Shown here: piece after piece, positions 41,570 through 51,532 of the stretch
How the letters are laid out: each line of letters starts with the position of its first letter
How positions within the stretch are numbered: position 1 is the stretch's first letter
Origin: Acidobacteriota bacterium
Lineage (GTDB): Bacteria > Acidobacteriota > UBA6911
NCBI GenBank assembly: GCA_963664705.1
Contig: OY761556.1
Span: 1,888,001-1,952,000 of the forward strand
Direction of reading: 5' to 3'
DNA length: 64,000 bases
The notes under the pieces: generated by a model
Seen by the model: the letters and a program-made list of their open reading frames with translations, nothing else
Database searches by the model: none
Told to the model about the DNA's origin: nothing
Position numbers and translations under genes: made by a program

Positions 41570-41614
41570 TTTCGCTCGTTGCCCGAGGCTTATGGGCAAC
41601 AGCCTCGTTAGAAT

Positions 41615-41690
41615 GGGCCGTTAGCTCAGTCGGCAGAGCATCTGCCTTTTAAGCAGAGGGTCGTTGGTTCGAGTCCAACACGGCTCATCA
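41615..41690 (+). tRNA. tRNA-Lys (TTT); 3' end encoded as TCA rather than CCA
   Basis: Acceptor GGGCCGT/ACGGCTC, D-arm GCTC/GAGC, anticodon stem TCTGC/GCAGA with loop CTTTTAA, T-loop GTTCGAG. Confidence 0.96.
41646..41690 (+). repeat. attL core (45 bp, 3' half of tRNA-Lys)
   Basis: CTTTTAAGCAGAGGGTCGTTGGTTCGAGTCCAACACGGCTCATCA, identical to 51488-51532. Confidence 0.95.
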
Positions 41691-41758
41691 CACAAGCACA
41701 ATCCAATCAAACGTTTAGCCATTCTGAAATCTGCAGGCTTCTCTTGTTTTGGCGTCAC

Positions 41759-41777
41759 TGTGCCCTGAATTGTGCCC
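41759..41777 (+). promoter_or_regulatory. Putative integrase arm-type site pair (left)
   Basis: TGTGCCC-N5-TGTGCCC about 70 bp inside attL; same motif inside attR. Confidence 0.7.
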
Positions 41778-41866
41778 TAGGAGGCTATGTATGGTCCTTT
41801 GGTTTTCTCATAATGGAACCACAGGTGGCGTAACCTTAGATAATTGAGCAAAATTTGCACATTTGA

Positions 41867-44110
41867 TCACTCAACACCAAAAACAGCATTGCGTTGAACT
41901 ATTTGATTCGACCTGCTTTCTTTGACGGTGACACGCAATTCATAGATGCCTGGATCCAAACTGCTGAGATCCATATCATCGTGAACCTCAAACCATCCTT
42001 TGCTATCGACCTTTGTCTCGTCCTCGAAGATTGCAAGCCAAGGCTCAGCCTTGACCGCCTTTCCTCCCTTTAGCAACTCACGCATGAACACTATTTCCGC
42101 ATCCTGTGAGGTAGTCTTTCCTGGATGTATGCGGAAGGAATATTCGCAGAATATGTCTCGCCCATATAAAGGGATCCCTTGGGCTATTTTGATTTGCTCA
42201 AGGTCCCTCTTATCATCTTCACCTAACTCAGAATTCTTATTAAGTGGATTTCGTAAGATAATGCTGCTCATGTCAAATTTTTGATTCTCAGGCTCTCGTA
42301 CGTCAACCCAGGCGGTGGCGGTACCAAATTTATCGGTTCCTTCTTCCCGAATCCCGATGCGTGCTTGATAAACGCCCGGTTTAAGAAGCAGCCTTCGCGA
42401 AAAACGGTATCCATTATTCTCGGCTTGCGACACACGTTCTGGCGTCAGTTTCCCGTTCACGGTTGCTGAGATCGCTTCCACCTGCTTAGATTCAGCATCA
42501 TAGATATAGCTAATAATTTCAAATCCGATATTTGCAGTCTGCCTTTGTTCCGTTTGTGTGGATTTGTACCCTTCAAAATCGATTGTCAGGGTCACATTCT
42601 TGTCATCGGACTGGTTTGTCATGAACTCTGATGTTGCCGAAACATTCAATTGATTTAGAGAGTATCCAGCATTAATGGAATTAATTAGGCGTTGATGCGG
42701 CGAAATTACAGCCTCACTTTCAGATTTGCTTTTTAACGCAGAGGGATAGAACCCGCGGGCCGTTTGGACCGCATATTCGGGATGATTTCGAACCCGCAAC
42801 CTTATTTTTCTGAATTTTTGACCGTTGTCGTTGGCTTGCAAATAATAGGCAAGAACATAGTAGTACCGATTTGCGTCTAGAGCCTCATCAACCAATCGAT
42901 CAATGTTATTCGTTGCACCAAACAGTTTTCCGCCAGTTTCCTGTGCAATTTGCGAGAGTCCATTCAATTCTTCGCGTTCGGATAAGCTCATAATCCTATT
43001 TATTTGTCCAGGGTCTGGTGCCTCGCAACGAGGCTCTGTTGTGCCATTACAATTTGTTTCGACGCTATCTGGGGTAGAAGACGATCTATTCTTTCCTGCG
43101 TCAACAGTTGGTGGAATCTGTAGGCCCTTCGCATCAATGGCATAGACCGCCACTCCTGATTTTACAGCGAGGTCGATAATCGGTCGAAGTTGATCAGAAT
43201 GAGTACCGGAGTCGTTGTCATAAAGGGTAAACCCGTCCGAAAAGATGATTATCATCTTTTTCCCCGGCAGATTGATCATTTGTTCTGAAAAATCCCTAAT
43301 AGCAGAAACGGTACTTTTGCGATAAAAGGATTGTTCGGAAAGCACCTGCAAAGCTCTATTGCGTGCAAGCGTCCGTAGCATGCAGCAGTCCCTGAGGTTT
43401 TGCTCACCCCTTATAAGATCTATCGCTAGTCTGTAGTCATCCACTTGGTTTGCAAGAACTCCGGCTGCCAGGAGAGGCGTAAATGCTTTTTCAGAGCCGA
43501 TTGGACCTAGACGAATTTGCTCAATAGCATAATTGAGCAGTTTTTTATCTTGCGTAAACTGCTGGGCGATTCCGAGGGTCTGACCGCTGGTTGCTATTGC
43601 AGCCATGTCTCGGTCAGTCATCCTAACAGATGTGAAATGTCTCAGAGCTTCCTTCACGCGATTGAGACTTGAGATTGATAAATGCAGAGTATCAACAAAA
43701 AGTAACGTACTCCTGTCGGGAGTTTGGCTCTGCTCTTTTTGTGTGACATGGCCCAAGCGCGGTTCATTTTCAACGCTACCTTGCTTTTTTTGATTATCAT
43801 CCAGCCTGGAGATGTTAAAGAAACTGATCTCCTGCGGTTTTTCATCTTCATATAACTCAAAGTCTTCCTTTTTGAGATTTTCAACCACATGGCCTGAACG
43901 ATCCAGAACAACTGTACGCAACTGCATAAGTTCTGTTTTGGTCTTGATCAGCAACCCTTCTTGCTTCTCTATGGAGCCGTTCTGTGCTGCCGTCTCCCTG
44001 GTTTCATATTGCATAGCTACAAAAAGTGCTAAACCCAGAGTACAGAGGATACGATAGTTGATCACACTCTTTCCCCTCCAAAGAAAACAACTTGCGGCAA
44101 CGCAGTTCAA
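41867..44110 (-). CDS. Large VWFA-related Acidobacterial-type protein (element cargo)
   Basis: VLDRSGHVVENLKKEDFELYEDEKPQEI, FVDTLHLS, FSDGF, AVYAIDAKGL, YYVLAYY, C-terminal Ig-like PGIYELRV; start probably near 44065. Confidence 0.85.
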   Translation of the reverse strand: MNCVAASCFLWRGKSVINYRILCTLGLALFVAMQYETRETAAQNGSIEKQEGLLIKTKTELMQLRTVVLDRSGHVVENLKKEDFELYEDEKPQEISFFNISRLDDNQKKQGSVENEPRLGHVTQKEQSQTPDRSTLLFVDTLHLSISSLNRVKEALRHFTSVRMTDRDMAAIATSGQTLGIAQQFTQDKKLLNYAIEQIRLGPIGSEKAFTPLLAAGVLANQVDDYRLAIDLIRGEQNLRDCCMLRTLARNRALQVLSEQSFYRKSTVSAIRDFSEQMINLPGKKMIIIFSDGFTLYDNDSGTHSDQLRPIIDLAVKSGVAVYAIDAKGLQIPPTVDAGKNRSSSTPDSVETNCNGTTEPRCEAPDPGQINRIMSLSEREELNGLSQIAQETGGKLFGATNNIDRLVDEALDANRYYYVLAYYLQANDNGQKFRKIRLRVRNHPEYAVQTARGFYPSALKSKSESEAVISPHQRLINSINAGYSLNQLNVSATSEFMTNQSDDKNVTLTIDFEGYKSTQTEQRQTANIGFEIISYIYDAESKQVEAISATVNGKLTPERVSQAENNGYRFSRRLLLKPGVYQARIGIREEGTDKFGTATAWVDVREPENQKFDMSSIILRNPLNKNSELGEDDKRDLEQIKIAQGIPLYGRDIFCEYSFRIHPGKTTSQDAEIVFMRELLKGGKAVKAEPWLAIFEDETKVDSKGWFEVHDDMDLSSLDPGIYELRVTVKESRSNQIVQRNAVFGVE

Positions 44111-44185
44111 AGCTTAGAGTATTCTTAAATTGAGATTCAAAAGACAAGCTGTAAGTTCAAAGAAACTCAAAAAGGGGGATATAAA

Positions 44186-45160
44186 ATGTTTGTCAAATCA
44201 AGCATGTGCTTGTTTTTCTTTATCATGCTTATTTGTCAGCTTGTTATGACGAATGCCCCTGCACAAAACCTGCCAACCGGTAACCTTTCGCGGCTTTCGC
44301 AAGCTCGAGCATTGACCGCTCCTGAAAAACAAATGCAGGTGCTTCCTAAAGATAAGACCGTTGTCGACATGGATTCTAAAGAGTTGCACCGATATTTCCC
44401 GTCCGAGCTCCGACGAGTAACCTTCGACCTGAACCAGGACGTATTAAGCTCAATAATGGAAAAAACGGGAGAATGCGTGCAAGCGTTCTTCAAAGATTTT
44501 GCAAACACATCCTCAAAAGAGGCTGTTTACCTGGAAAAGCCGGGGAATAGCGGCAGCACTAGTCGTGAATTCAGCTACTTGATTGTTTATCATCCTGATG
44601 CGAACAAGCCATTACTTGAGGAATATAGGACCGATAAACAAAATCATCCGATTGCTCAGAAGGCACTAAAAGATGTTTTTATAACGTCCGGTTACTTGGG
44701 ACTCAGTTTAAATTTTCATCCTGCGTATCAGCAATATTCTCGTTTCAGGTATTTGGGAACTCAGGCATCCGATCCTCATGCTCTTATCATTGCCTTTGCC
44801 CAGAAGCCAGAAATGAGAGATCTGCAAATCGAATACACTGATACCAATACTGGAAACAGGTTCCGTCTTCCAATACAGGGAATTGCATGGATAGATCCAA
44901 GCTCTTTTCAAATATTGCGTTTGCGCACAAACCTCCTGGGCATGGGAAATCAATCCTTCATTTCGGAACAAAGCACCGATATTAAGCTCGGCGCAGTCCG
45001 CTTTGAGGAAAATCAGAAGCAGTTATGGCTACCACGCGAAGTTATGGTTATGACTCAAATCTCCGGTTATGTTTTTCGAAATCAGCACCGCTATTCTGAC
45101 TACAAATTGTTTGCTGTTGATAGCGACTTCACAATTGACAAGACAAAGCCAGGCAAATAG
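44186..45160 (+). CDS. Hypothetical exported protein (element cargo)
   Basis: Signal peptide; GIAWIDPSSFQILRLRT, LWLPREV, HRYSDYKLF resemble Acidobacterial exported beta-proteins. Confidence 0.8.
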   Translation: MFVKSSMCLFFFIMLICQLVMTNAPAQNLPTGNLSRLSQARALTAPEKQMQVLPKDKTVVDMDSKELHRYFPSELRRVTFDLNQDVLSSIMEKTGECVQAFFKDFANTSSKEAVYLEKPGNSGSTSREFSYLIVYHPDANKPLLEEYRTDKQNHPIAQKALKDVFITSGYLGLSLNFHPAYQQYSRFRYLGTQASDPHALIIAFAQKPEMRDLQIEYTDTNTGNRFRLPIQGIAWIDPSSFQILRLRTNLLGMGNQSFISEQSTDIKLGAVRFEENQKQLWLPREVMVMTQISGYVFRNQHRYSDYKLFAVDSDFTIDKTKPGK

Positions 45161-45209
45161 GACTGCATTAAGACATCAAGATCCCGGAAACGGCTACATA
45201 GCAAATTAC

Positions 45210-46316
45210 TCATCTAGACATTGAAAAGGCATCCAGACGCACTGCTGCATCCCTGAGATCGCCCTCGGACACGATGTTGTATCTCTCAAACACGGATCTT
45301 GTTTTGTGGCCGGTCATCTTCATCGCAACTCCTTCCGGCACTCCTGCTCTGACTAGGTTTCGGACAGCTGTCCTCCGGAAGTCATGCACCAGGCGGCCGG
45401 GGACTCCCGCCGCTTTGCACGCAGCTTCCCAGCTATGTTTGAAGTCGACGAATGGTCTGCCTTTCCGAACCCCTTTGGTATAGAAGAAGACCCAAGGCGT
45501 GATGATCCCTTTTTCCTTGAGGCCATCTGCCCGAGTCCTCTGCAGATTCAAGACGGCCTCGAGTTCATCAGTGAAAGGGAAGACTCGTCCCTTCCGGTTT
45601 TTTGTGGTGCCGACATCTAGGATTACGACCCGTGCCTCGAAATCGACCTGGCGCCACTGCAGTTTGAGGATCTCATTCTTGCGCCATCCGGTGACATAGG
45701 CAAACCTTGCCACCGGCTCAATGCGGCTGCGAACCTCTTTGCCGCCGCTAACATCAGGAAGATGCTTTAGGACGGCTTGGAACTGGTCAAGTTCGAAAAA
45801 ACCGGTCCTCACGTTGTCCTCCTTGAGCATGGTTATGTGAGGCCGGTCCGAGACTATGCGTTTCTGGATGCCAAGGGAGAAGGCGCGCTTGATCGTAGCT
45901 AGTTCGCGATTGATGCTTGCATTGCTGGATCCCTCTTCTCTCCGCTGCAGGATGTAGTCGTCAATGGTGGTCTCGGTGATCTGCGTGACCTTCATCTTCC
46001 CAAAGAATGGAATAATGTGAAGCCTATGCCGCAACTCAATGTCAGCAGCAGACCGATAGCCATTCAGTTCGTAGTCCTTCTCGACGAGCGAAGCCAGTTC
46101 AGAGAATATGACCTTGCGCTCAAGGCTCTTTGTCGGACGTCGCTTCGTCGCCTCTCCCTCACGTTGCTTCAAGTACTCTTTTGCTTCCGCGTAGTCTGCC
46201 GTCCCCGCAGTCTCGCGGATGACGCGACCGTGTGAGTAGTACTTGATCCACCATATGGCCAAAGTCCGCTTTTTGCCATCCTTGTCTTTGAATGTTCGTC
46301 TGAACACACTTCCCAC
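45210..46316 (-). CDS. Tyrosine recombinase/integrase
   Basis: Catalytic set intact: TGWRKNE, TKN, HDFRRT, TGH, ERY; GTG 46316 with AAGGAG RBS (ORF opens at 46394). Confidence 0.95.
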   Translation of the reverse strand: MGSVFRRTFKDKDGKKRTLAIWWIKYYSHGRVIRETAGTADYAEAKEYLKQREGEATKRRPTKSLERKVIFSELASLVEKDYELNGYRSAADIELRHRLHIIPFFGKMKVTQITETTIDDYILQRREEGSSNASINRELATIKRAFSLGIQKRIVSDRPHITMLKEDNVRTGFFELDQFQAVLKHLPDVSGGKEVRSRIEPVARFAYVTGWRKNEILKLQWRQVDFEARVVILDVGTTKNRKGRVFPFTDELEAVLNLQRTRADGLKEKGIITPWVFFYTKGVRKGRPFVDFKHSWEAACKAAGVPGRLVHDFRRTAVRNLVRAGVPEGVAMKMTGHKTRSVFERYNIVSEGDLRDAAVRLDAFSMSR

Positions 46317-46407
46317 GTGGGTCTCCTTTATTTTCAAGGTGGATTTAATGGGATTCGATATTAGAATCGAGGGAGCCATGTTTCCTTCCACCAAGGAGTC
46401 ATGGTTA

Positions 46408-46707
46408 GGGGCTCACCTGGCGCTCAGAACGCCAAGTAGCCCCGTAGCGCGAATTATGTCGTGTTGCTTTCTGCAAACCTGCTCTAAAACGGCCCAGGGC
46501 GCGTGAAGTCCCGAGGGCAGTGGCGGGCCAACTCGTAGAATTGACCCGCCCGTTGCAGGGTTCCTGCTCTGCACAGTCGGCGCATGGCTGAATGCGATCG
46601 CCGAAGCCGCATCTGGGATCGTCCCGCCCCAACATCGGAAAGAACGGAACACCGCCCAGCCCGGAAGAACATCTGTGGCGGACCCCGATGTGTCGTCGGA
46701 GCCCGCC
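46408..46707 (-). ncRNA. Candidate structured RNA between the capsid and integrase genes
   Basis: At least four hairpins (46408-46443, 46522-46550, 46591-46613, 46677-46707) whose irregular pairs are G-U on the minus strand; one has a C(UUCG)G tetraloop. Confidence 0.5.
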
Positions 46708-46720
46708 TTGGGCACTTTTC

Positions 46721-48034
46721 TTATCGCTTGCCGAGGACCACGCACCAACTGAGCGAGTCGCCATTTTTCGGAGTTATCGCAGCGTTCCACGTTCCTTTGC
46801 CGTCAACCCGCATGATCGCGCGATAGGCCTTTTGGTCCTGTTGCCAGCCAACATGTATTGAGGTATCGAGCGTGACCTCGCGCCGCATGCCGACTGCGTA
46901 CTGGGTAAAGTCGACCAGCGCGATATCGCCCTCAGAACCGAGCGCAGGCGCCTTCTCCGTGAAAACACAGGGCCTCGTCAGGATTGAGAATTGACCATTG
47001 CTTTGCGAGAGAACCGGAACAGGCGCACCGGCATCTCCGATCACTTGATAAAGCTGGAGCAGCTGCGGGATACACGTTGAGTTCGCGAGCCAGATGCTGT
47101 TGGCCAGGCACTGCGGAGCAAGTCTGGCAAACATCTTGGTGAGATTGATGTAGTTGATGGTTGCGGCATTTTGATTCTGCTCTTTCGCGACGACAATTCG
47201 CGCCGGATCGCGGAGTGCGCCAAGCGGCTGGCCGGCTCCGGATCCGTTCAAAAAGCTATGATCAAGAGCCCAGCCGAGGGTTTTGGTCATTGCGGCATTG
47301 ATCTGAGCCTCGAAGCCCAGGCCATCCTGAACCAGCTCATTGGACGCGCGGCAGAACGCGGCCAACTTGTTCGCCTTCAGGCCGAGCAGGAGGAGTTTCC
47401 CGGTGACGTCAGCAGCCTCGCCGTTCTCGGGCAACCACTGCGCTGATATTCCGCCGAACAGGGAATTCGAATGGTCTTTGCTGTCCCATCCCGGGATCTT
47501 CTTGGTGTCGGACGTCATGGGCCAAATCTGGCATCGCGATCTAACGATTTCGTCCTCGAGCGACGAGTCGAGCCAGGTTGCGCTCAATTCTTACGGAACG
47601 GCATAGCCACCCAAAGCGTCATTGCCTTCCTGTTGAACTGATGCTTGGATAAGCCGCTCGTCAAATCTGCCAGAACTGACGGCCGCCAGGAACTCATTCC
47701 CATCGCGGAATGCGGATCCCCTGATCGTGCCGAACATTGCGGAGAACGTGCGTCCCGTAGCCGGACCCTTAAACTCCTGGCTCAGATCGACCTTGTAGAA
47801 GTGGCCGTTGACGTCCTGCCGGTACTTGACCACGGGAGTTGCTTGGCGTTCGCGTTCCATCTCCTCCTCCCACGCAGTGATTGCCTCCTCATTCCGGGCT
47901 CGCGCCGCGTGCAGCTCGTCGATCTTCGCCTTCTGGTCGGCGGTGAGCGTTTCGCCCGCGCCTGCGAGAATCTGGGAGATCTGATTTTTAATGACAAGAC
48001 GCCGTTGTCTTAGGTCCTTGATGTTTGCCGTCAT
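46721..48034 (-). pseudogene. HK97-fold phage major capsid protein interrupted by one in-frame TAA (47591-47593)
   Basis: The 147-aa and 288-aa ORFs are in frame: ...LGGYAVP*ELSATWLD...; motifs WLPENGE, FLNGSGAGQPLG, GDIALVDFTQY, AYRAIMRVDG; N-terminal coiled-coil delta-like domain. Confidence 0.88.
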
Positions 48035-48244
48035 AACTAAGTCCTTTCACGCCCGCATAGGCATATTTATATATTGTGAGTTGTTGGATTTATCACTGCG
48101 TGGCGGGCGGACAGGTCTCAACGGAGCCTGTGCCAGTCGTTGCACTCGGGCAGATCGTGGCGTCTACGGACCCACTCGCTGCGAGTGCCTTAAGCTGTGC
48201 TTATCCTAACATAAGAATAAATTCTAATTGAACTATAAAATGTA

Positions 48245-48466
48245 TTAATTCATAGAATTTCTTTCCTCGACCTTTTTTGCCACGACAGCCGGGAGTCCAG
48301 CTATCACCTGCTTAACACCGAGGAAGAGCCTGCCGCATGCTTTCCAGTTCCCAGCCTCAATAAAGCGGCGGAATGCGTCCGCCAGCAACACTGGGATCGC
48401 CTCCTCCTCGGGCACTTCCAACCCATCGTCATTGCCGTCCTCAATTCGCATGTCGATCATCCCCAA
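48245..48466 (-). CDS. Small hypothetical protein
   Basis: About 70 aa, co-oriented with the element operon; GGGG RBS-like before internal ATGs. Confidence 0.55.
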   Translation of the reverse strand: MGMIDMRIEDGNDDGLEVPEEEAIPVLLADAFRRFIEAGNWKACGRLFLGVKQVIAGLPAVVAKKVEERNSMN

Positions 48467-48841
48467 TTAATGTTGTTTTAACCCCGTTTTATGCTCGGGA
48501 TTTTAGGCTGTTTCAGCACTGTTCCGATGCTGCAGGACATTGACTCGATCACCGTAACCGTTTCTGATGCGGATAGATCCCCCGGAATCCGCGTATCCTA
48601 TTCACCGGTGCATCTGAGGCGTAATGCCCATCTGACCCCCCGGTTGCTGATGCGGGAAACTTTCGGGGGCCTTGCGCGCCCGGTCTGCGGCCTTACCTTC
48701 CTAGATATTGCAGGGGCCCTACCGCCCTAGTTGGGTAAACAACTCTACGATTGCCGAAACCCTCGTCCTAAACTCCTTCACCGGTTGCCTGACTACCGGA
48801 TCGGTACGATGCTCGTAAAGGTCTCCTTGGATTCCGTCAAT

Positions 48842-49044
48842 GGATCGTCTACGGGATCGTCTGCGCTTATATAGAAAAGCATCATAGACAGTCGATTGGA
48901 CGTTACACTTCGTTCCACGTCCATATCGCCTCTCTGTACCCGGCTGATAGTCAATAGATGTAAAAGGCAGTTCAGACGATTTAGTCATTGTAAAGACTCA
49001 TGTTGGATTCGATTGTCTGAAGCCTCTCGGACACCTCAGACGGT
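48842..49044. repeat. Iteron-like cluster (putative replication origin)
   Basis: Six AGAC(G/A)(A/G)T copies in both orientations near TATATA (48868-48873), at the helicase 3' end. Confidence 0.55.
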
Positions 49045-50534
49045 ATGATGCGATACTGCGTCGCCGATCCTTTACCCTTCCTCTCAACCTTTCCAGCATC
49101 GAACAGCCCGGAGAGATGCTTCGCTACCGTAGCCCGTGCAAGCCCTGTGCCCATCGAAATTTCCTTTGGCTGTGCCCAGGAACCGGAAACAAGAGCGAGC
49201 GCGTCCAGCACCTTCTCCTTGTTCTTGTCACCCACGATCTTCATGTTCTTGGCGATTCGCTCGACGTCACCGGCCCATGTGAACTTCGGTCTGCCGGATC
49301 CCTTGGGTGACATGTCAACGAAAAAACTCGGCCGGTCGTCGATGTCCTTGTTCTCGGAATAGACATGGAGCCGTCCCTCCTGCGGGGTTCTCGCAAGGCA
49401 GATCATGAAATCGGCGCAACCATATTTGCCGATGCTGCCCTTGAGGTCGAACGGGTTTGGTTCCTGGCTATCACGCCCGAGGTTCTTGCCGATAGGCTTG
49501 CGGGTGTGGTCGACGCACAGAATCGTTACGCCCAGGTCCCGGTTGACCTCCTCCAGGATGGAAACCATCTTCGCCATGTCTTTCGCGTTCGACTCGTCGA
49601 GGTCCGGAATCATGCGGTTCAGCACGTCGAGGATCAGGAAGTCGAACCCGTTGTCCCGTACCTGGCTCTTCAGCCAGGCCAGGTGCGCGGCATCAGTCAG
49701 GTTCATCCGTTCGCGGACGAGGAAACGAAGTCGGCCTTCGGATGGATAAGGCAGGAGATCTCCATACCCTTTCGTGATTTCCTCAGCACGCTCCTTGAGC
49801 CTATAGACAGGATCTTCGCGAGCTATATAGAGGACACGAGAAGAAGTGACGACATACTTGCCCAGCCAGAGGCGCTGCTGCCGAGGCTGCGCCAGATGAA
49901 ATGCGGCGTCCTCGGCGAGCAGGCTCTTGCCGGTCTTCGGCGCCGCGCTTAGGAACCCTATGCTGCGTTTGGGGACCAGTGGTTCGATTGCCCAATCCGG
50001 AGGAGAGGTGGGCATGGACTTGAGACTTGATGCGTCCAATAGCTGCCAGGAGATTTCCTTGCCTCGGAAAGCTGTGGCCTCGGCGAGCGACTTCGCCAGC
50101 GCCGCCTTCGCTATTTCAACGGAACCGGTCCCACCGATAACTGCCTGAATAAAGGCATTCGCATCTGTGACAGCCCGCCGCATCTGCGCGAGTCGGACAA
50201 CTCGTTCAGCATAGACTCCCACGGCCATTGCGCGTGCTACGCCGTCCGTAAGGCTTACCAGCATTGCAGCCCCGCCGACCCGTTCAAGATCGCCGGTGTC
50301 CTGCAGGTCGGACTTGACCGTCACAAGATCGATTGGGATCCCGGCGCTGGCAAGCCTGAGCATGCTCTTAAGCACAAGCCGAAGAGGCTCCTGATAGAGA
50401 TCAGAGAAGTCGAGCCCGGTGCTCAGAGCCTCTTCCATCTTCTCTGGGGCGACGAGTATCCCGCCGATCAGGCTGCGCTCGGTTTCAGGATCATGAGGGA
50501 GTAGACCGGTGACGGCAGAGTGGGCAGTCGTCAT
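48981..50534 (-). CDS. Replicative helicase: DnaB N-terminal domain + AAA_25/RepA-like ATPase + wHTH
   Basis: PHDPETERSLIGGIL...PIDLVTV...LERVGG (DnaB_N); AAPKTGKS; LILDVL; DHTRK; DLKGS; C-terminal HTH. Confidence 0.88.
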   Translation of the reverse strand: MTTAHSAVTGLLPHDPETERSLIGGILVAPEKMEEALSTGLDFSDLYQEPLRLVLKSMLRLASAGIPIDLVTVKSDLQDTGDLERVGGAAMLVSLTDGVARAMAVGVYAERVVRLAQMRRAVTDANAFIQAVIGGTGSVEIAKAALAKSLAEATAFRGKEISWQLLDASSLKSMPTSPPDWAIEPLVPKRSIGFLSAAPKTGKSLLAEDAAFHLAQPRQQRLWLGKYVVTSSRVLYIAREDPVYRLKERAEEITKGYGDLLPYPSEGRLRFLVRERMNLTDAAHLAWLKSQVRDNGFDFLILDVLNRMIPDLDESNAKDMAKMVSILEEVNRDLGVTILCVDHTRKPIGKNLGRDSQEPNPFDLKGSIGKYGCADFMICLARTPQEGRLHVYSENKDIDDRPSFFVDMSPKGSGRPKFTWAGDVERIAKNMKIVGDKNKEKVLDALALVSGSWAQPKEISMGTGLARATVAKHLSGLFDAGKVERKGKGSATQYRIIPSEVSERLQTIESNMSLYND

Positions 50535-50824
50535 CGGGCCCCCTGCTCAGCTTTAAGCCGTTCGATCAGCTTGTCGCAATCCTCGCGATCAATGAGGAGT
50601 TTGTTCATGGTCCGTTGGCGAGGCCTCGCAATGACCGTCTTGTTCTCACCGCGAATTTTGGCACCGGGCAGTTTGACCGGAGTGAGGATCCCGTCTGCAA
50701 TGTAGTCGCGCACCGACTGCTCGCCTACTGAGAGATAGGCTGCAGCCAAGTGGATGTCCAGCAGCCGCGGCCACGTCAGCATCGTCAAGCCGGCACGGGA
50801 AGATCGGCCGAGACGATCATTCAT
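50531..50824 (-). CDS. Excisionase-like HTH (HTH_17/AlpA-like)
   Basis: RLLDIHLAAAYLSVGEQSVRDYIADGIL..., LIDREDCDKLIE; GGAGG RBS; ATGA-coupled to the helicase. Confidence 0.8.
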   Translation of the reverse strand: MNDRLGRSSRAGLTMLTWPRLLDIHLAAAYLSVGEQSVRDYIADGILTPVKLPGAKIRGENKTVIARPRQRTMNKLLIDREDCDKLIERLKAEQGAR

Positions 50825-51050
50825 GGGAACCCTCCCGGAAGAGTTCCGGAAATAAAAACTGGGGATCCGCACTCAGAACCTTGCAGATCTTCTGCGCTTG
50901 TTCATGGGTGGGAAGGGCGCGGCCGGTCTCGAAATAGGAGATATCCGGCTGCTTGAGGCGCACGGCTCGTGCGAGCTGGGACTGGTCTAGTCCCTGCATG
51001 ACTCTTGCTGCACGGAGTCTACGGTTTATCGTAGAACACTGCTTCTTCAT
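50817..51050 (-). CDS. XRE/Cro-family HTH regulator
   Basis: LRAARVMQGLDQSQLARAVRLKQPDISYFETG. Confidence 0.85.
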   Translation of the reverse strand: MKKQCSTINRRLRAARVMQGLDQSQLARAVRLKQPDISYFETGRALPTHEQAQKICKVLSADPQFLFPELFREGSHE

Positions 51051-51357
51051 GGTACTTCACGGTCTCCAAACAAAACCCAGTTGGCGGAGCATGCGCGAGC
51101 GAGGCATGCAACGCCGGGGCTTAATTTATCAGGCCGCGAAGAACCGATCGCGGCGGCTATTGTGGAAAGTTGCTTAAAGCCGCATAAAAGCGAACCAGGC
51201 GGGAATGCACTGGAAGGATTCTAACCTTTTTGTTCAGTGTAAAGCGGATTCCATAATATATCTTGCGATATGGATGTCCAGAACTTTTTGGGCCGGGACC
51301 AACCATCGACACTCCGGGAAAGAGAGAAGTCCATGCCGTAATTATCTAACTTCCTAT

Positions 51358-51376
51358 TGTGCCCAGAAGTGTGCCC
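51358..51376 (+). promoter_or_regulatory. Putative integrase arm-type site pair (right)
   Basis: TGTGCCC-N5-TGTGCCC about 110 bp inside attR. Confidence 0.7.
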
Positions 51377-51487
51377 AGGCACATCGGATGATATCGAAAA
51401 ATATCAGGAAATAGCAGAGAGGTCACAGAATGCCGCTTTGTGGATTAGCGCTTTGGTATCAATATTTTGGGCTTCGGTGTGGACGGG

Positions 51488-51532
51488 CTTTTAAGCAGAG
51501 GGTCGTTGGTTCGAGTCCAACACGGCTCATCA
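51488..51532 (+). repeat. attR core (45-bp duplicate of the tRNA-Lys 3' half)
   Basis: Exact copy of 41646-41690; the tRNA 5' half is absent. Confidence 0.95.

Follow-up and report, generated by a model that had tools for sequence, protein, structure and literature searches.

The window analysed here is a 64,000-nucleotide stretch of the genome of an Acidobacteriota bacterium (NCBI GenBank assembly GCA_963664705.1, contig OY761556.1, positions 1,888,001 to 1,952,000); coordinates without a contig label are those of the window. Between positions 41646 and 51532 it carries an island that is a genuine mobile element. The island is delimited by two exact copies of a 45-bp repeat on the plus strand (att cores at 41646-41690 and 51488-51532) with a spacing of 9,842 bp, and both the duplication and the size of the circle predicted from it bear out what an earlier, sequence-only reading of this DNA had proposed. 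The repeat begins at the anticodon loop of an intact tRNA-Lys(TTT) gene (41614-41689, plus strand; tRNA was the only family over threshold in the Rfam scan), the first core being the 3' half of this integration target. Just inside each att lies a TGTGCCC-N5-TGTGCCC tandem (41759-41777 and 51358-51376, plus strand), a pattern picked after inspection that has exactly two copies in the 6.89-Mb single-contig genome. A repeat pair just inside both ends is what is expected of integrase arm-type sites, and the tandems likely represent such sites. Among four genomes of the same genus, two have the orthologous tRNA-Lys without the element; in a third the site contains a fragment of an integrase, and in the fourth the tRNA itself is missing.

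The core genes lie on the minus strand in the order XRE-family helix-turn-helix (HTH) regulator, excisionase-like protein (xis), helicase, a 73-aa open reading frame (ORF), HK97-fold major capsid protein and tyrosine integrase. This order had been read from the letters before, and domain matches now support it (PF01381/PF13560, PF05065 and TIGR01554; HTH_17 weakly, E 7e-4). The 77-aa regulator (50817-51050) matches HTH_3/HTH_31, and the HTH_17 xis-like protein (50531-50872) has homologs in sister elements. The 517-aa replication protein (48981-50534) joins a DnaB N-terminal domain to an AAA_25 helicase, with Walker A and B present, and a C-terminal HTH. The integrase (45210-46394) has the catalytic R/K/HxxR/H/Y motifs, and its true start, judged from the sequence and its relatives, is probably a GTG at 46316. 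The 73-aa ORF (48245-48466) may not be a gene; it was rejected as a small terminase (TerS) or other known protein, having no Pfam, PHROG or NCBIfam match, no homolog in the relatives' loci, and Atlas matches of at most 0.81. A six-frame scan of the element that read through stops, using locally built profiles, gave no match to portal, terminase or protease; no tail or lysis family was found among the element ORFs scanned, and no TerS by the profiles tried. These scans agree with the earlier remark that none of these genes is recognisable.

The capsid gene (46721-48034, minus strand; 437 codons) is broken at codon 148 by an in-frame TAA (47591-47593, minus strand), which the sequence-only reading overlooked. 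The corresponding column is Glu in 24 of 29 capsid homologs, the TAA is one base away from a Glu codon, and the 289 codons downstream are otherwise open. No alternative letter at 47591-47593 is seen in the contigs from two runs of a single sample, possibly the assembly's own source; assembly error was rejected as the cause on their letter-for-letter agreement, with this limit. This copy probably cannot make a full-length capsid. The protein matches PF05065 and TIGR01554, with no encapsulin domain, and its top Foldseek matches are capsids of phages and gene transfer agents (GTAs). Internal stops occur in the capsid frames of 7 of 189 related loci, at differing positions, and some relatives have split capsid ORFs (L183, L201, L202 and L230).

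The genome holds two further HK97 capsid genes, one in a prophage at tRNA-Ser and one in an element at tRNA-Val. The former is a 58,365-bp att-bounded prophage (contig G000:C1, 2539673-2598038; loci L001, L002 and L007), and it provides the co-resident HK97-like cos prophage that was sought following the sequence-only reading. It encodes HNH, TerL, portal, S49 protease, neck, tail tube, a long tape measure and fibre proteins, and we regard it as the candidate helper. It also contains two very large inserted ORFs, of 1,605 and 1,714 aa.

Comparison with the prophage shows that the satellite capsid sequence is a chimera, in which the core of a satellite clade is joined to an N-terminal end of helper-phage lineage. 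The end in question comprises residues 1-66 (47837-48034, minus strand), a predicted helical hairpin that corresponds to the delta, or scaffold, N-terminus. Residues 1-65 are identical to the prophage capsid at 37 of 60 positions, with a score of 165; the best of 119 own-family homologs scores 91, the best of 183 locus ORFs 69, and the maximum of 2,000 shuffles is 55. In the core, identity to the prophage capsid is 30-44%, versus 50-74% to the 12 top homologs listed. A core tree of 70 rows, computed with a quick method, groups the satellite capsid with its five nearest homologs, P0003-P0007 (SH-aLRT 99), and places the prophage family separately (100). N-terminal trees were computed for 104 rows with the quick method and for 31 of these, selected by the analyst, with a careful method; here the satellite capsid is nested with the prophage capsid (support 86/81). 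Holding the N-terminus with its core relatives was rejected by an approximately unbiased (AU) test (p 0.024), in which the tested grouping was named from the core tree at a point when the quick N-terminal tree was already known. Homolog P0006 also groups with the N-terminal ends of the prophage family (95/86), an apparent second swap, which suggests that an exchangeable, portal-adapting end recurs. Because synonymous sites are saturated, the N-terminus is not a recent copy from this prophage; it appears to derive from the prophage's lineage, and not lately from this member of it. Searched against representatives of 50% clusters, the N-terminus found only itself and two weak matches, and a second capsid match was absent in 18 of the 25 genomes checked.

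AlphaFold predicts helices at capsid residues 5-25 and 32-65 (pLDDT 85-93). In HK97, residues 2-66 of the capsid protein form coiled-coil towers that bind and hold the portal (PMC10275583). A complex prediction for the satellite N-terminus and the prophage portal scored 0.46, versus 0.01 for the best control, with runs agreeing in at least 84% of contacts and a partner pLDDT of at least 76. The mark applied to such predictions is passed by 116 of 157 solved pairs and by 2 of 215 mismatched pairs; at scores of 0.60 or below, it is passed by 18 solved pairs and by both mismatches. The prediction thus lends weak support to docking of the N-terminus on the portal.

A second resemblance to the prophage concerns a cos-like site (48633-48723, minus strand; core 48673-48686), which is similar to a site just upstream of the prophage packaging operon. 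This genome has the 14-mer core at two places only, one in the satellite and the other 43-56 nt ahead of that operon (a post hoc observation), and the two cores are identical at 13 of 14 positions. Aligned with each other, the two sites score 86, against 79 for the best of 19,993 random tiles, and this is the top score among 1,554 prophage tiles (also post hoc). The motif is found on 13 contigs of IMG/VR; at five of the sites an HNH gene comes immediately before the motif, and at four of these five TerL is no more than 700 nt away, while a sixth site lies in front of a methylase that resembles the prophage's. A partly circular profile built from these six sites ranks the prophage site first (E 1e-8). 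Among 60 loci scanned, five relatives have a match to it (E 2e-7 to 0.27) at a distance of 0.4-1.2 kb upstream of the capsid. We consider it likely, on sequence likeness, that the satellite segment is a degenerate cos.

To place the element among its relatives, a 30-sequence capsid alignment was used to fetch 191 loci. The capsid was present in 189, representing 131 clusters at 90% identity; 77 were dropped for flanks shorter than 3 kb, leaving 54. Portal and TerL are absent within 7 kb of the capsid in 29 of the 36 relatives that are at least 40% identical. The same profiles were positive in 15 of the 18 relatives below 40% identity, and so can detect these genes. Pfam searches of 110 of 111 further same-strand ORFs of the 29 loci (at least 170 aa, within 4 kb) likewise gave no portal, TerL or protease. 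Among the 29, TerS occurs in 12, IS110 in 2 and a tyrosine integrase in 25, co-oriented with the capsid in 21 of these 25. In the analyst's reading, tRNA-derived att repeats are present in 21 of 31 portal-less loci examined, and 20 of the 21 enclose 8.1-10.3 kb (median 9,091 bp). Record titles assign the relatives to Acidobacteriota, Planctomycetota, Chloroflexota, Bacillota, Pseudomonadota, Actinomycetota and Thermodesulfobacteriota, among others. Within the host's own family, five elements at tRNA genes all have the helicase and an integrase in common, and some the xis, while the remaining slot holds TerS, TerL or no packaging match. Since the portal-less gene set, the att-bounded sizes and the sister elements recur, the element is, by comparative sequence evidence, a satellite of a modular family with a conserved compact gene set and not a decayed prophage; the sequence-only reading, too, had taken it for a satellite. 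That reading had asked for a search of Acidobacteriota, and relatives do occur there: 6 of 62 records of relatives carry this label. Few genomes of the host's kin have a capsid relative (2 of 400 genomes of the phylum and 3 of 136 of the class, two of the latter being prophage-type or 33-36% identical). Tail-related singletons (tape measure, HK97 gp10-like and a weak minor tail match) were seen in three otherwise capsid-only elements (L163:4425-6053, L083:11779-12477 and L060:11703-12542).

The replication protein shows a further departure from its relatives. Among 40 homologs of its AAA_25-HTH part, 20 have a primase-type domain in front, 7 a DnaB_N domain and 13 neither as listed. With the N-terminus of the host DnaB, the DnaB_N part shares 40% identity, and domain scans found no primase domain in the satellite helicase or in the other element ORFs. 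The DnaB N-domain thus appears to occupy the place that primase holds in the helicase's relatives, an arrangement that looks new. DnaG binds the N-terminal domain of DnaB (PMC12593628), and by analogy the host primase may be recruited through this domain. A search of IMG/VR with the helicase gave no match.

Between the integrase and the tRNA, inside the att sites, lie 3.4 kb of cargo that had been overlooked: a 747-aa acidobacterial VWA-domain protein (41867-44110, minus strand; TIGR03436), with many host paralogs at about 20-23% identity, and a 324-aa protein of no matched family (44186-45160, plus strand), with host paralogs up to 37% identical. The cargo has a GC content of 44%, versus 56% in the element core. 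At another host locus (G000:C1:403465-407540) a VWA paralog adjoins two paralogs of the 324-aa gene, which suggests that the pair was captured from an acidobacterial chromosome. The spacer between capsid and integrase (46395-46720, minus strand) contains several long hairpins, in line with the structure ascribed to it earlier (folding z -3.8, reached by 0 of 100 shuffles), and has no Rfam family at gathering score. Overlapping it, positions 46372-46444 (minus strand) resemble a family of plasmid antisense RNAs, though below threshold (38 versus 55 bits), in a long hairpin just upstream of the integrase. The iterons named in the sequence-only reading were not upheld: they amount to a single duplicated 9-mer, and 2,000 shuffles reach as much in 6% of cases. 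Two 12-bp repeats after the helicase gene (48842-48865), a possible origin, are likewise not above chance. A promoter scan found 3 where 3.9 are expected, which is chance level, and a crude tandem-repeat inspection for CRISPR arrays saw none. Profile scans of the regulators gave no AlpA or MerR match, the four small ORFs upstream of xre gave no family match, and no divergent repressor or stl/str switch was found. The layout was earlier described as unlike that of phage-inducible chromosomal islands (PICIs) or P4; the apparent lack of a divergent repressor and of a primase domain stands, but the terminal position of the integrase partly reflects where att falls on the circle. Among relatives the integrase is downstream of the other genes in 12 and upstream in 9, co-oriented in both arrangements.

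Other integrated elements share this genome. At tRNA-Val lies a satellite-like, head-forming element of about 10 kb (G000:C1:1034918-1044234; L015) that encodes an integrase, xis, CHC2 primase-like protein, helicase, HNH, TerL, capsid, protease and portal, and has clear TGTAACA iterons; no TerS, tail gene or second att was found in it. Two more primase-bearing elements occupy tRNA-Arg genes (G000:C1:1332197-1351222, 19.0 kb, L006; and 6707977-6719397, 11.4 kb, L005), the larger of which has type I restriction-like and other defence-like cargo, as judged from the appearance of its ORFs. The host tRNA-Leu has four nested att remnants.

Two groups within the capsid clade are organised differently. 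One, comprising 23 of 189 loci (including L024-L026, L029, L035, L041, L081, L107, L172-L178, L201 and L202; Acetivibrio- or Bacillota-labelled and metagenome loci), has no tyrosine integrase and the order small regulator, P4-type primase, capsid, 100-aa ORF, IS110 recombinase (PF01548 and PF02371). Its units recur in tandem at a spacing of about 7.4-7.5 kb, and genes for Rhs/HINT-AHH toxins and Imm11 immunity proteins alternate with them; one genome has nine PF05065 matches, of which seven belong to this type as judged by score or contig. These loci may possibly represent a capsid-bearing element that is moved by the IS110 recombinase and shuffles polymorphic-toxin cassettes; our literature search, judged from listings, found no report on such a sub-family. 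The other group (L122, L167-L171, L177, L180-L185), nested in the portal-less clade, has the order HNH, TerL, a long capsid of about 565 aa, portal, sigma-like gene, integrase, and possibly represents an independent origin of a capsid-forming satellite.

Our preferred interpretation, to which we assign a probability of about 0.5, is that the element is a PICI-type cos satellite whose capsid, when intact, likely assembles a small head around the portal of a helper, and whose cos-like site is likely cut by the helper terminase. The cycle would start when a helper of the kind of the tRNA-Ser prophage (58 kb, with a long tape measure) is induced or infects. The integrase and xis would excise the 9,842-bp circle, and the satellite helicase, with no primase of its own, would recruit host DnaG via the DnaB N-domain. 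Residues 1-65 of the capsid would dock as coiled coils on the helper portal; the shell would then be matured by the helper protease, filled from cos by the helper terminase and joined to helper tails, with the cargo padding the genome up to the size of the family. In this copy the TAA most likely does away with the portal-docking and head step, so that its transfer would require either complementation or packaging into helper heads as concatemers. More tentatively, we propose that cross-phylum satellites of about 9 kb build their own shell from a satellite core and swap the first ~65 residues, a 'portal adapter', to choose their helper, a mode of hijacking between that of Ccm, the capsid homolog of SaPIbov5, and that of capsid-forming PICIs (cf-PICIs). 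That is, portal, protease, terminase and tail would be stolen and the shell kept, and the replacement of a primase by the DnaB N-domain would follow the same logic of borrowing.

A number of observations weigh against this interpretation. The capsid gene is interrupted in this copy, and the element shows no sign of activity: in the contigs of the two runs its read depth is at flank level (7.6 versus 6.8/7.2, and 15.8 versus 18.2/15.0), and no joint is listed for these contigs. The size of the element is ordinary for PICIs (median 9.5 kb, PMC10085698), and 3 of 5 att-bounded sister elements without a capsid match also measure 8.3-9.1 kb. Neither TerS nor a lysis gene was identified in the tRNA-Ser prophage. 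For the capsid end, the N-terminal tree supports, on 67 columns, are under the starred level; synonymous divergence is alike in N-terminus and core (15 of 36 and 42 of 95 codons identical); and a similar portal complex has already been solved, so that the passing score may be explained by memory of the predictor. A comparable match to a helper did not emerge in other genomes, where 8 pairs of satellite and co-resident capsids were tried, 3 could not be extracted, and the 5 scorable ones gave only generic N-terminal scores of 19-66. As for the cos-like site, the match is not significant genome-wide (unbiased nhmmer E 7.6), the six-site profile puts the satellite site at rank 6 (E 6), and the other 7 of the 13 IMG/VR matches look like chance. 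With its core match and a fitting position, the evidence for the site named in the sequence-only reading is moderate. Lastly, portal or TerL is present in 7 of the 36 close relatives, and a capsid-fused S78 protease in one.

The satellite capsid might instead act as Ccm does, that is, as a minority subunit that joins the helper capsid via coiled coils of mixed scaffold and makes the shell smaller. A lone capsid homolog of 24% identity, Ccm fills pentamers and builds no shell alone (PMC8569155); the core identity of 30-44% seen here would be compatible with such a role, and the scaffold likeness could serve hetero-oligomers. We nevertheless find co-assembly rather unlikely, though it ranks next after the preferred interpretation. 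The hexamers adjacent to the portal are helper protein in the Ccm model (PMC8569155), so a helper-like portal-binding end is not required there; some clade members are part of a complete head module that includes a portal and TerL of its own, so whole shells can likely be built with this fold; and in the satellite the scaffold region exceeds the helper's in length (a conserved motif lies at residue 142, versus 129 in the prophage capsid), whereas that of Ccm is shorter (PMC5052747). The 'Ccm-style' label of the sequence-only reading survives as one of two readings; the helper-like scaffold end agrees no less well with the helper portal being used directly. It is improbable, in turn, that the N-terminal likeness is inherited or generic and that portal and terminase really come from another phage or from the tRNA-Val element. 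The latter does encode a head module and has a short CCGGGCGC motif before TerL, the cos motif is common to many HNH-TerL phages, and the saturation of synonymous sites would also fit; yet the satellite N-terminus is 25% identical to the capsid of the tRNA-Val element versus 58% to that of the prophage, and the six-site cos profile gave no match for the tRNA-Val element.

The damaged capsid gene admits two other explanations. The stop codon may have been selected, releasing a free 147-aa scaffold fragment that titrates the helper portal or poisons assembly, as an interference factor; it does fall behind the whole predicted scaffold region, and capsid ORFs are split in the four relatives named above. 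With the codon one base from the prevailing Glu, the downstream frame open, and internal stops both few and differently placed among the 189 loci, we judge this to be very improbable. Slighter still is the chance that the island is a decayed prophage or capsid-forming PICI stripped of portal, protease and terminase. The broken capsid gene and the 7 of 36 relatives with portal or TerL would be in keeping with decay, but the read-through six-frame scan found no remnants, neither the two att cores nor the two arm-type sites are damaged, and several phyla show the portal-less layout again, with an att-bounded size of its own.

The PICI-type cos satellite that we favour can be compared with several described systems. 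The PICI model of SatelliteFinder has five core parts, of which Type B may lack one, and more than 99.9% of its PICIs are in Proteobacteria or Firmicutes (PMC10085698). Like Type B, the present element has an integrase, a regulator, a replicase and a lone capsid without portal, tail or holin, is near the median size and carries accessory cargo; its integrase goes with a chromosomal att, its capsid gene is TAA-interrupted, and head-tail genes are missing as well. It differs in having no TerS, DnaB_N for primase, XRE and HTH_17 in place of AlpA, MerR or Stl, core genes that all point the same way, and cargo between integrase and att. We therefore call the element PICI-like, do not count it as a tested PICI member, and expect from its sequence that it works like a cos-type PICI. 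The lone-capsid layout, which had seemed unfamiliar, is in fact described: integrase, regulator, replicase and lone capsid constitute a SatelliteFinder PICI with 4 of 5 parts (PMC10085698), and the layout is also found in tycheposons, which may have a major capsid protein (MCP) or terS gene as sole packaging gene (bioRxiv 10.1101/2020.12.28.424599). Lone-capsid PICIs are further known in E. coli and Pasteurella (PMC6092414), and lone-capsid elements in Mycobacterium (PMC10654092) and in gut mini-genomes (PMC13669383), while marine VEIMEs (integrative mobile elements encapsidated in virions) are without capsid genes (PMC9618062).

With the cos-type SaPIbov5 and Ccm (PMC5052747, PMC8569155) the element shares a lone HK97-fold capsid homolog with a delta domain, a helper-type cos-like site (here on moderate evidence), the absence of a functional TerS, and cargo space; it differs in that no divergent stl/str switch was found, there is no primase, the capsid clade spans many phyla, and the scaffold end, no shorter than that of the helper, belongs to the helper's lineage but the core does not. 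The PICI-like tycheposons of Prochlorococcus (bioRxiv 10.1101/2020.12.28.424599), compared by layout, are also tRNA-integrated, with a tyrosine recombinase, a helicase (DnaB-type subprofiles are named) and cargo exchange, but belong to another host group, and the accessible portion of that source describes no helper-matched scaffold. The 'twilight' HK97 mini-genomes (PMC13669383), for which a satellite lifestyle is proposed as one hypothesis, are similar in size (~8.75 kb) and in having integrase, helicase/Rep and capsid without portal or terminase; they come from the gut and have an encapsulin-like capsid and a separate scaffold, unlike the present element, with PF05065 only, a fused delta domain and a candidate helper in the genome. 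Finally, cf-PICIs (PMC10085698) and the Mycobacterium candidate PICIs and phiRv1-2 (PMC10654092) are likewise small integrated elements that bring an HK97 capsid gene of their own. Identity with cf-PICIs was rejected, as the TerL, portal, protease, HNH and head-tail connector genes that set these elements apart were not found in the element scans.

Capsid-only satellites as such are thus already known, as PICI variants and tycheposons. What looks new is the chimeric capsid, the cos-like site resembling that of the prophage (on moderate evidence) and the DnaB N-domain where relatives carry a primase. Judging from listings of the openly searchable literature (subscription papers and supplements lie outside this scope), we found no report of a helper-derived scaffold end, and none of such satellites in Acidobacteriota; the SatelliteFinder element tables could list members of the family.

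Lone capsid genes are present in many PICIs and tycheposons, and Ccm is the only one with a demonstrated role. In the present case one genome contains both a satellite and its candidate helper, and their sequences point to a small, swappable region that may set helper specificity. How capsid-only satellites obtain their portal becomes directly testable, for which intact relatives would be better material than this probably assembly-defective copy. The findings also extend this type of satellite to Acidobacteriota-labelled and many other understudied lineages.

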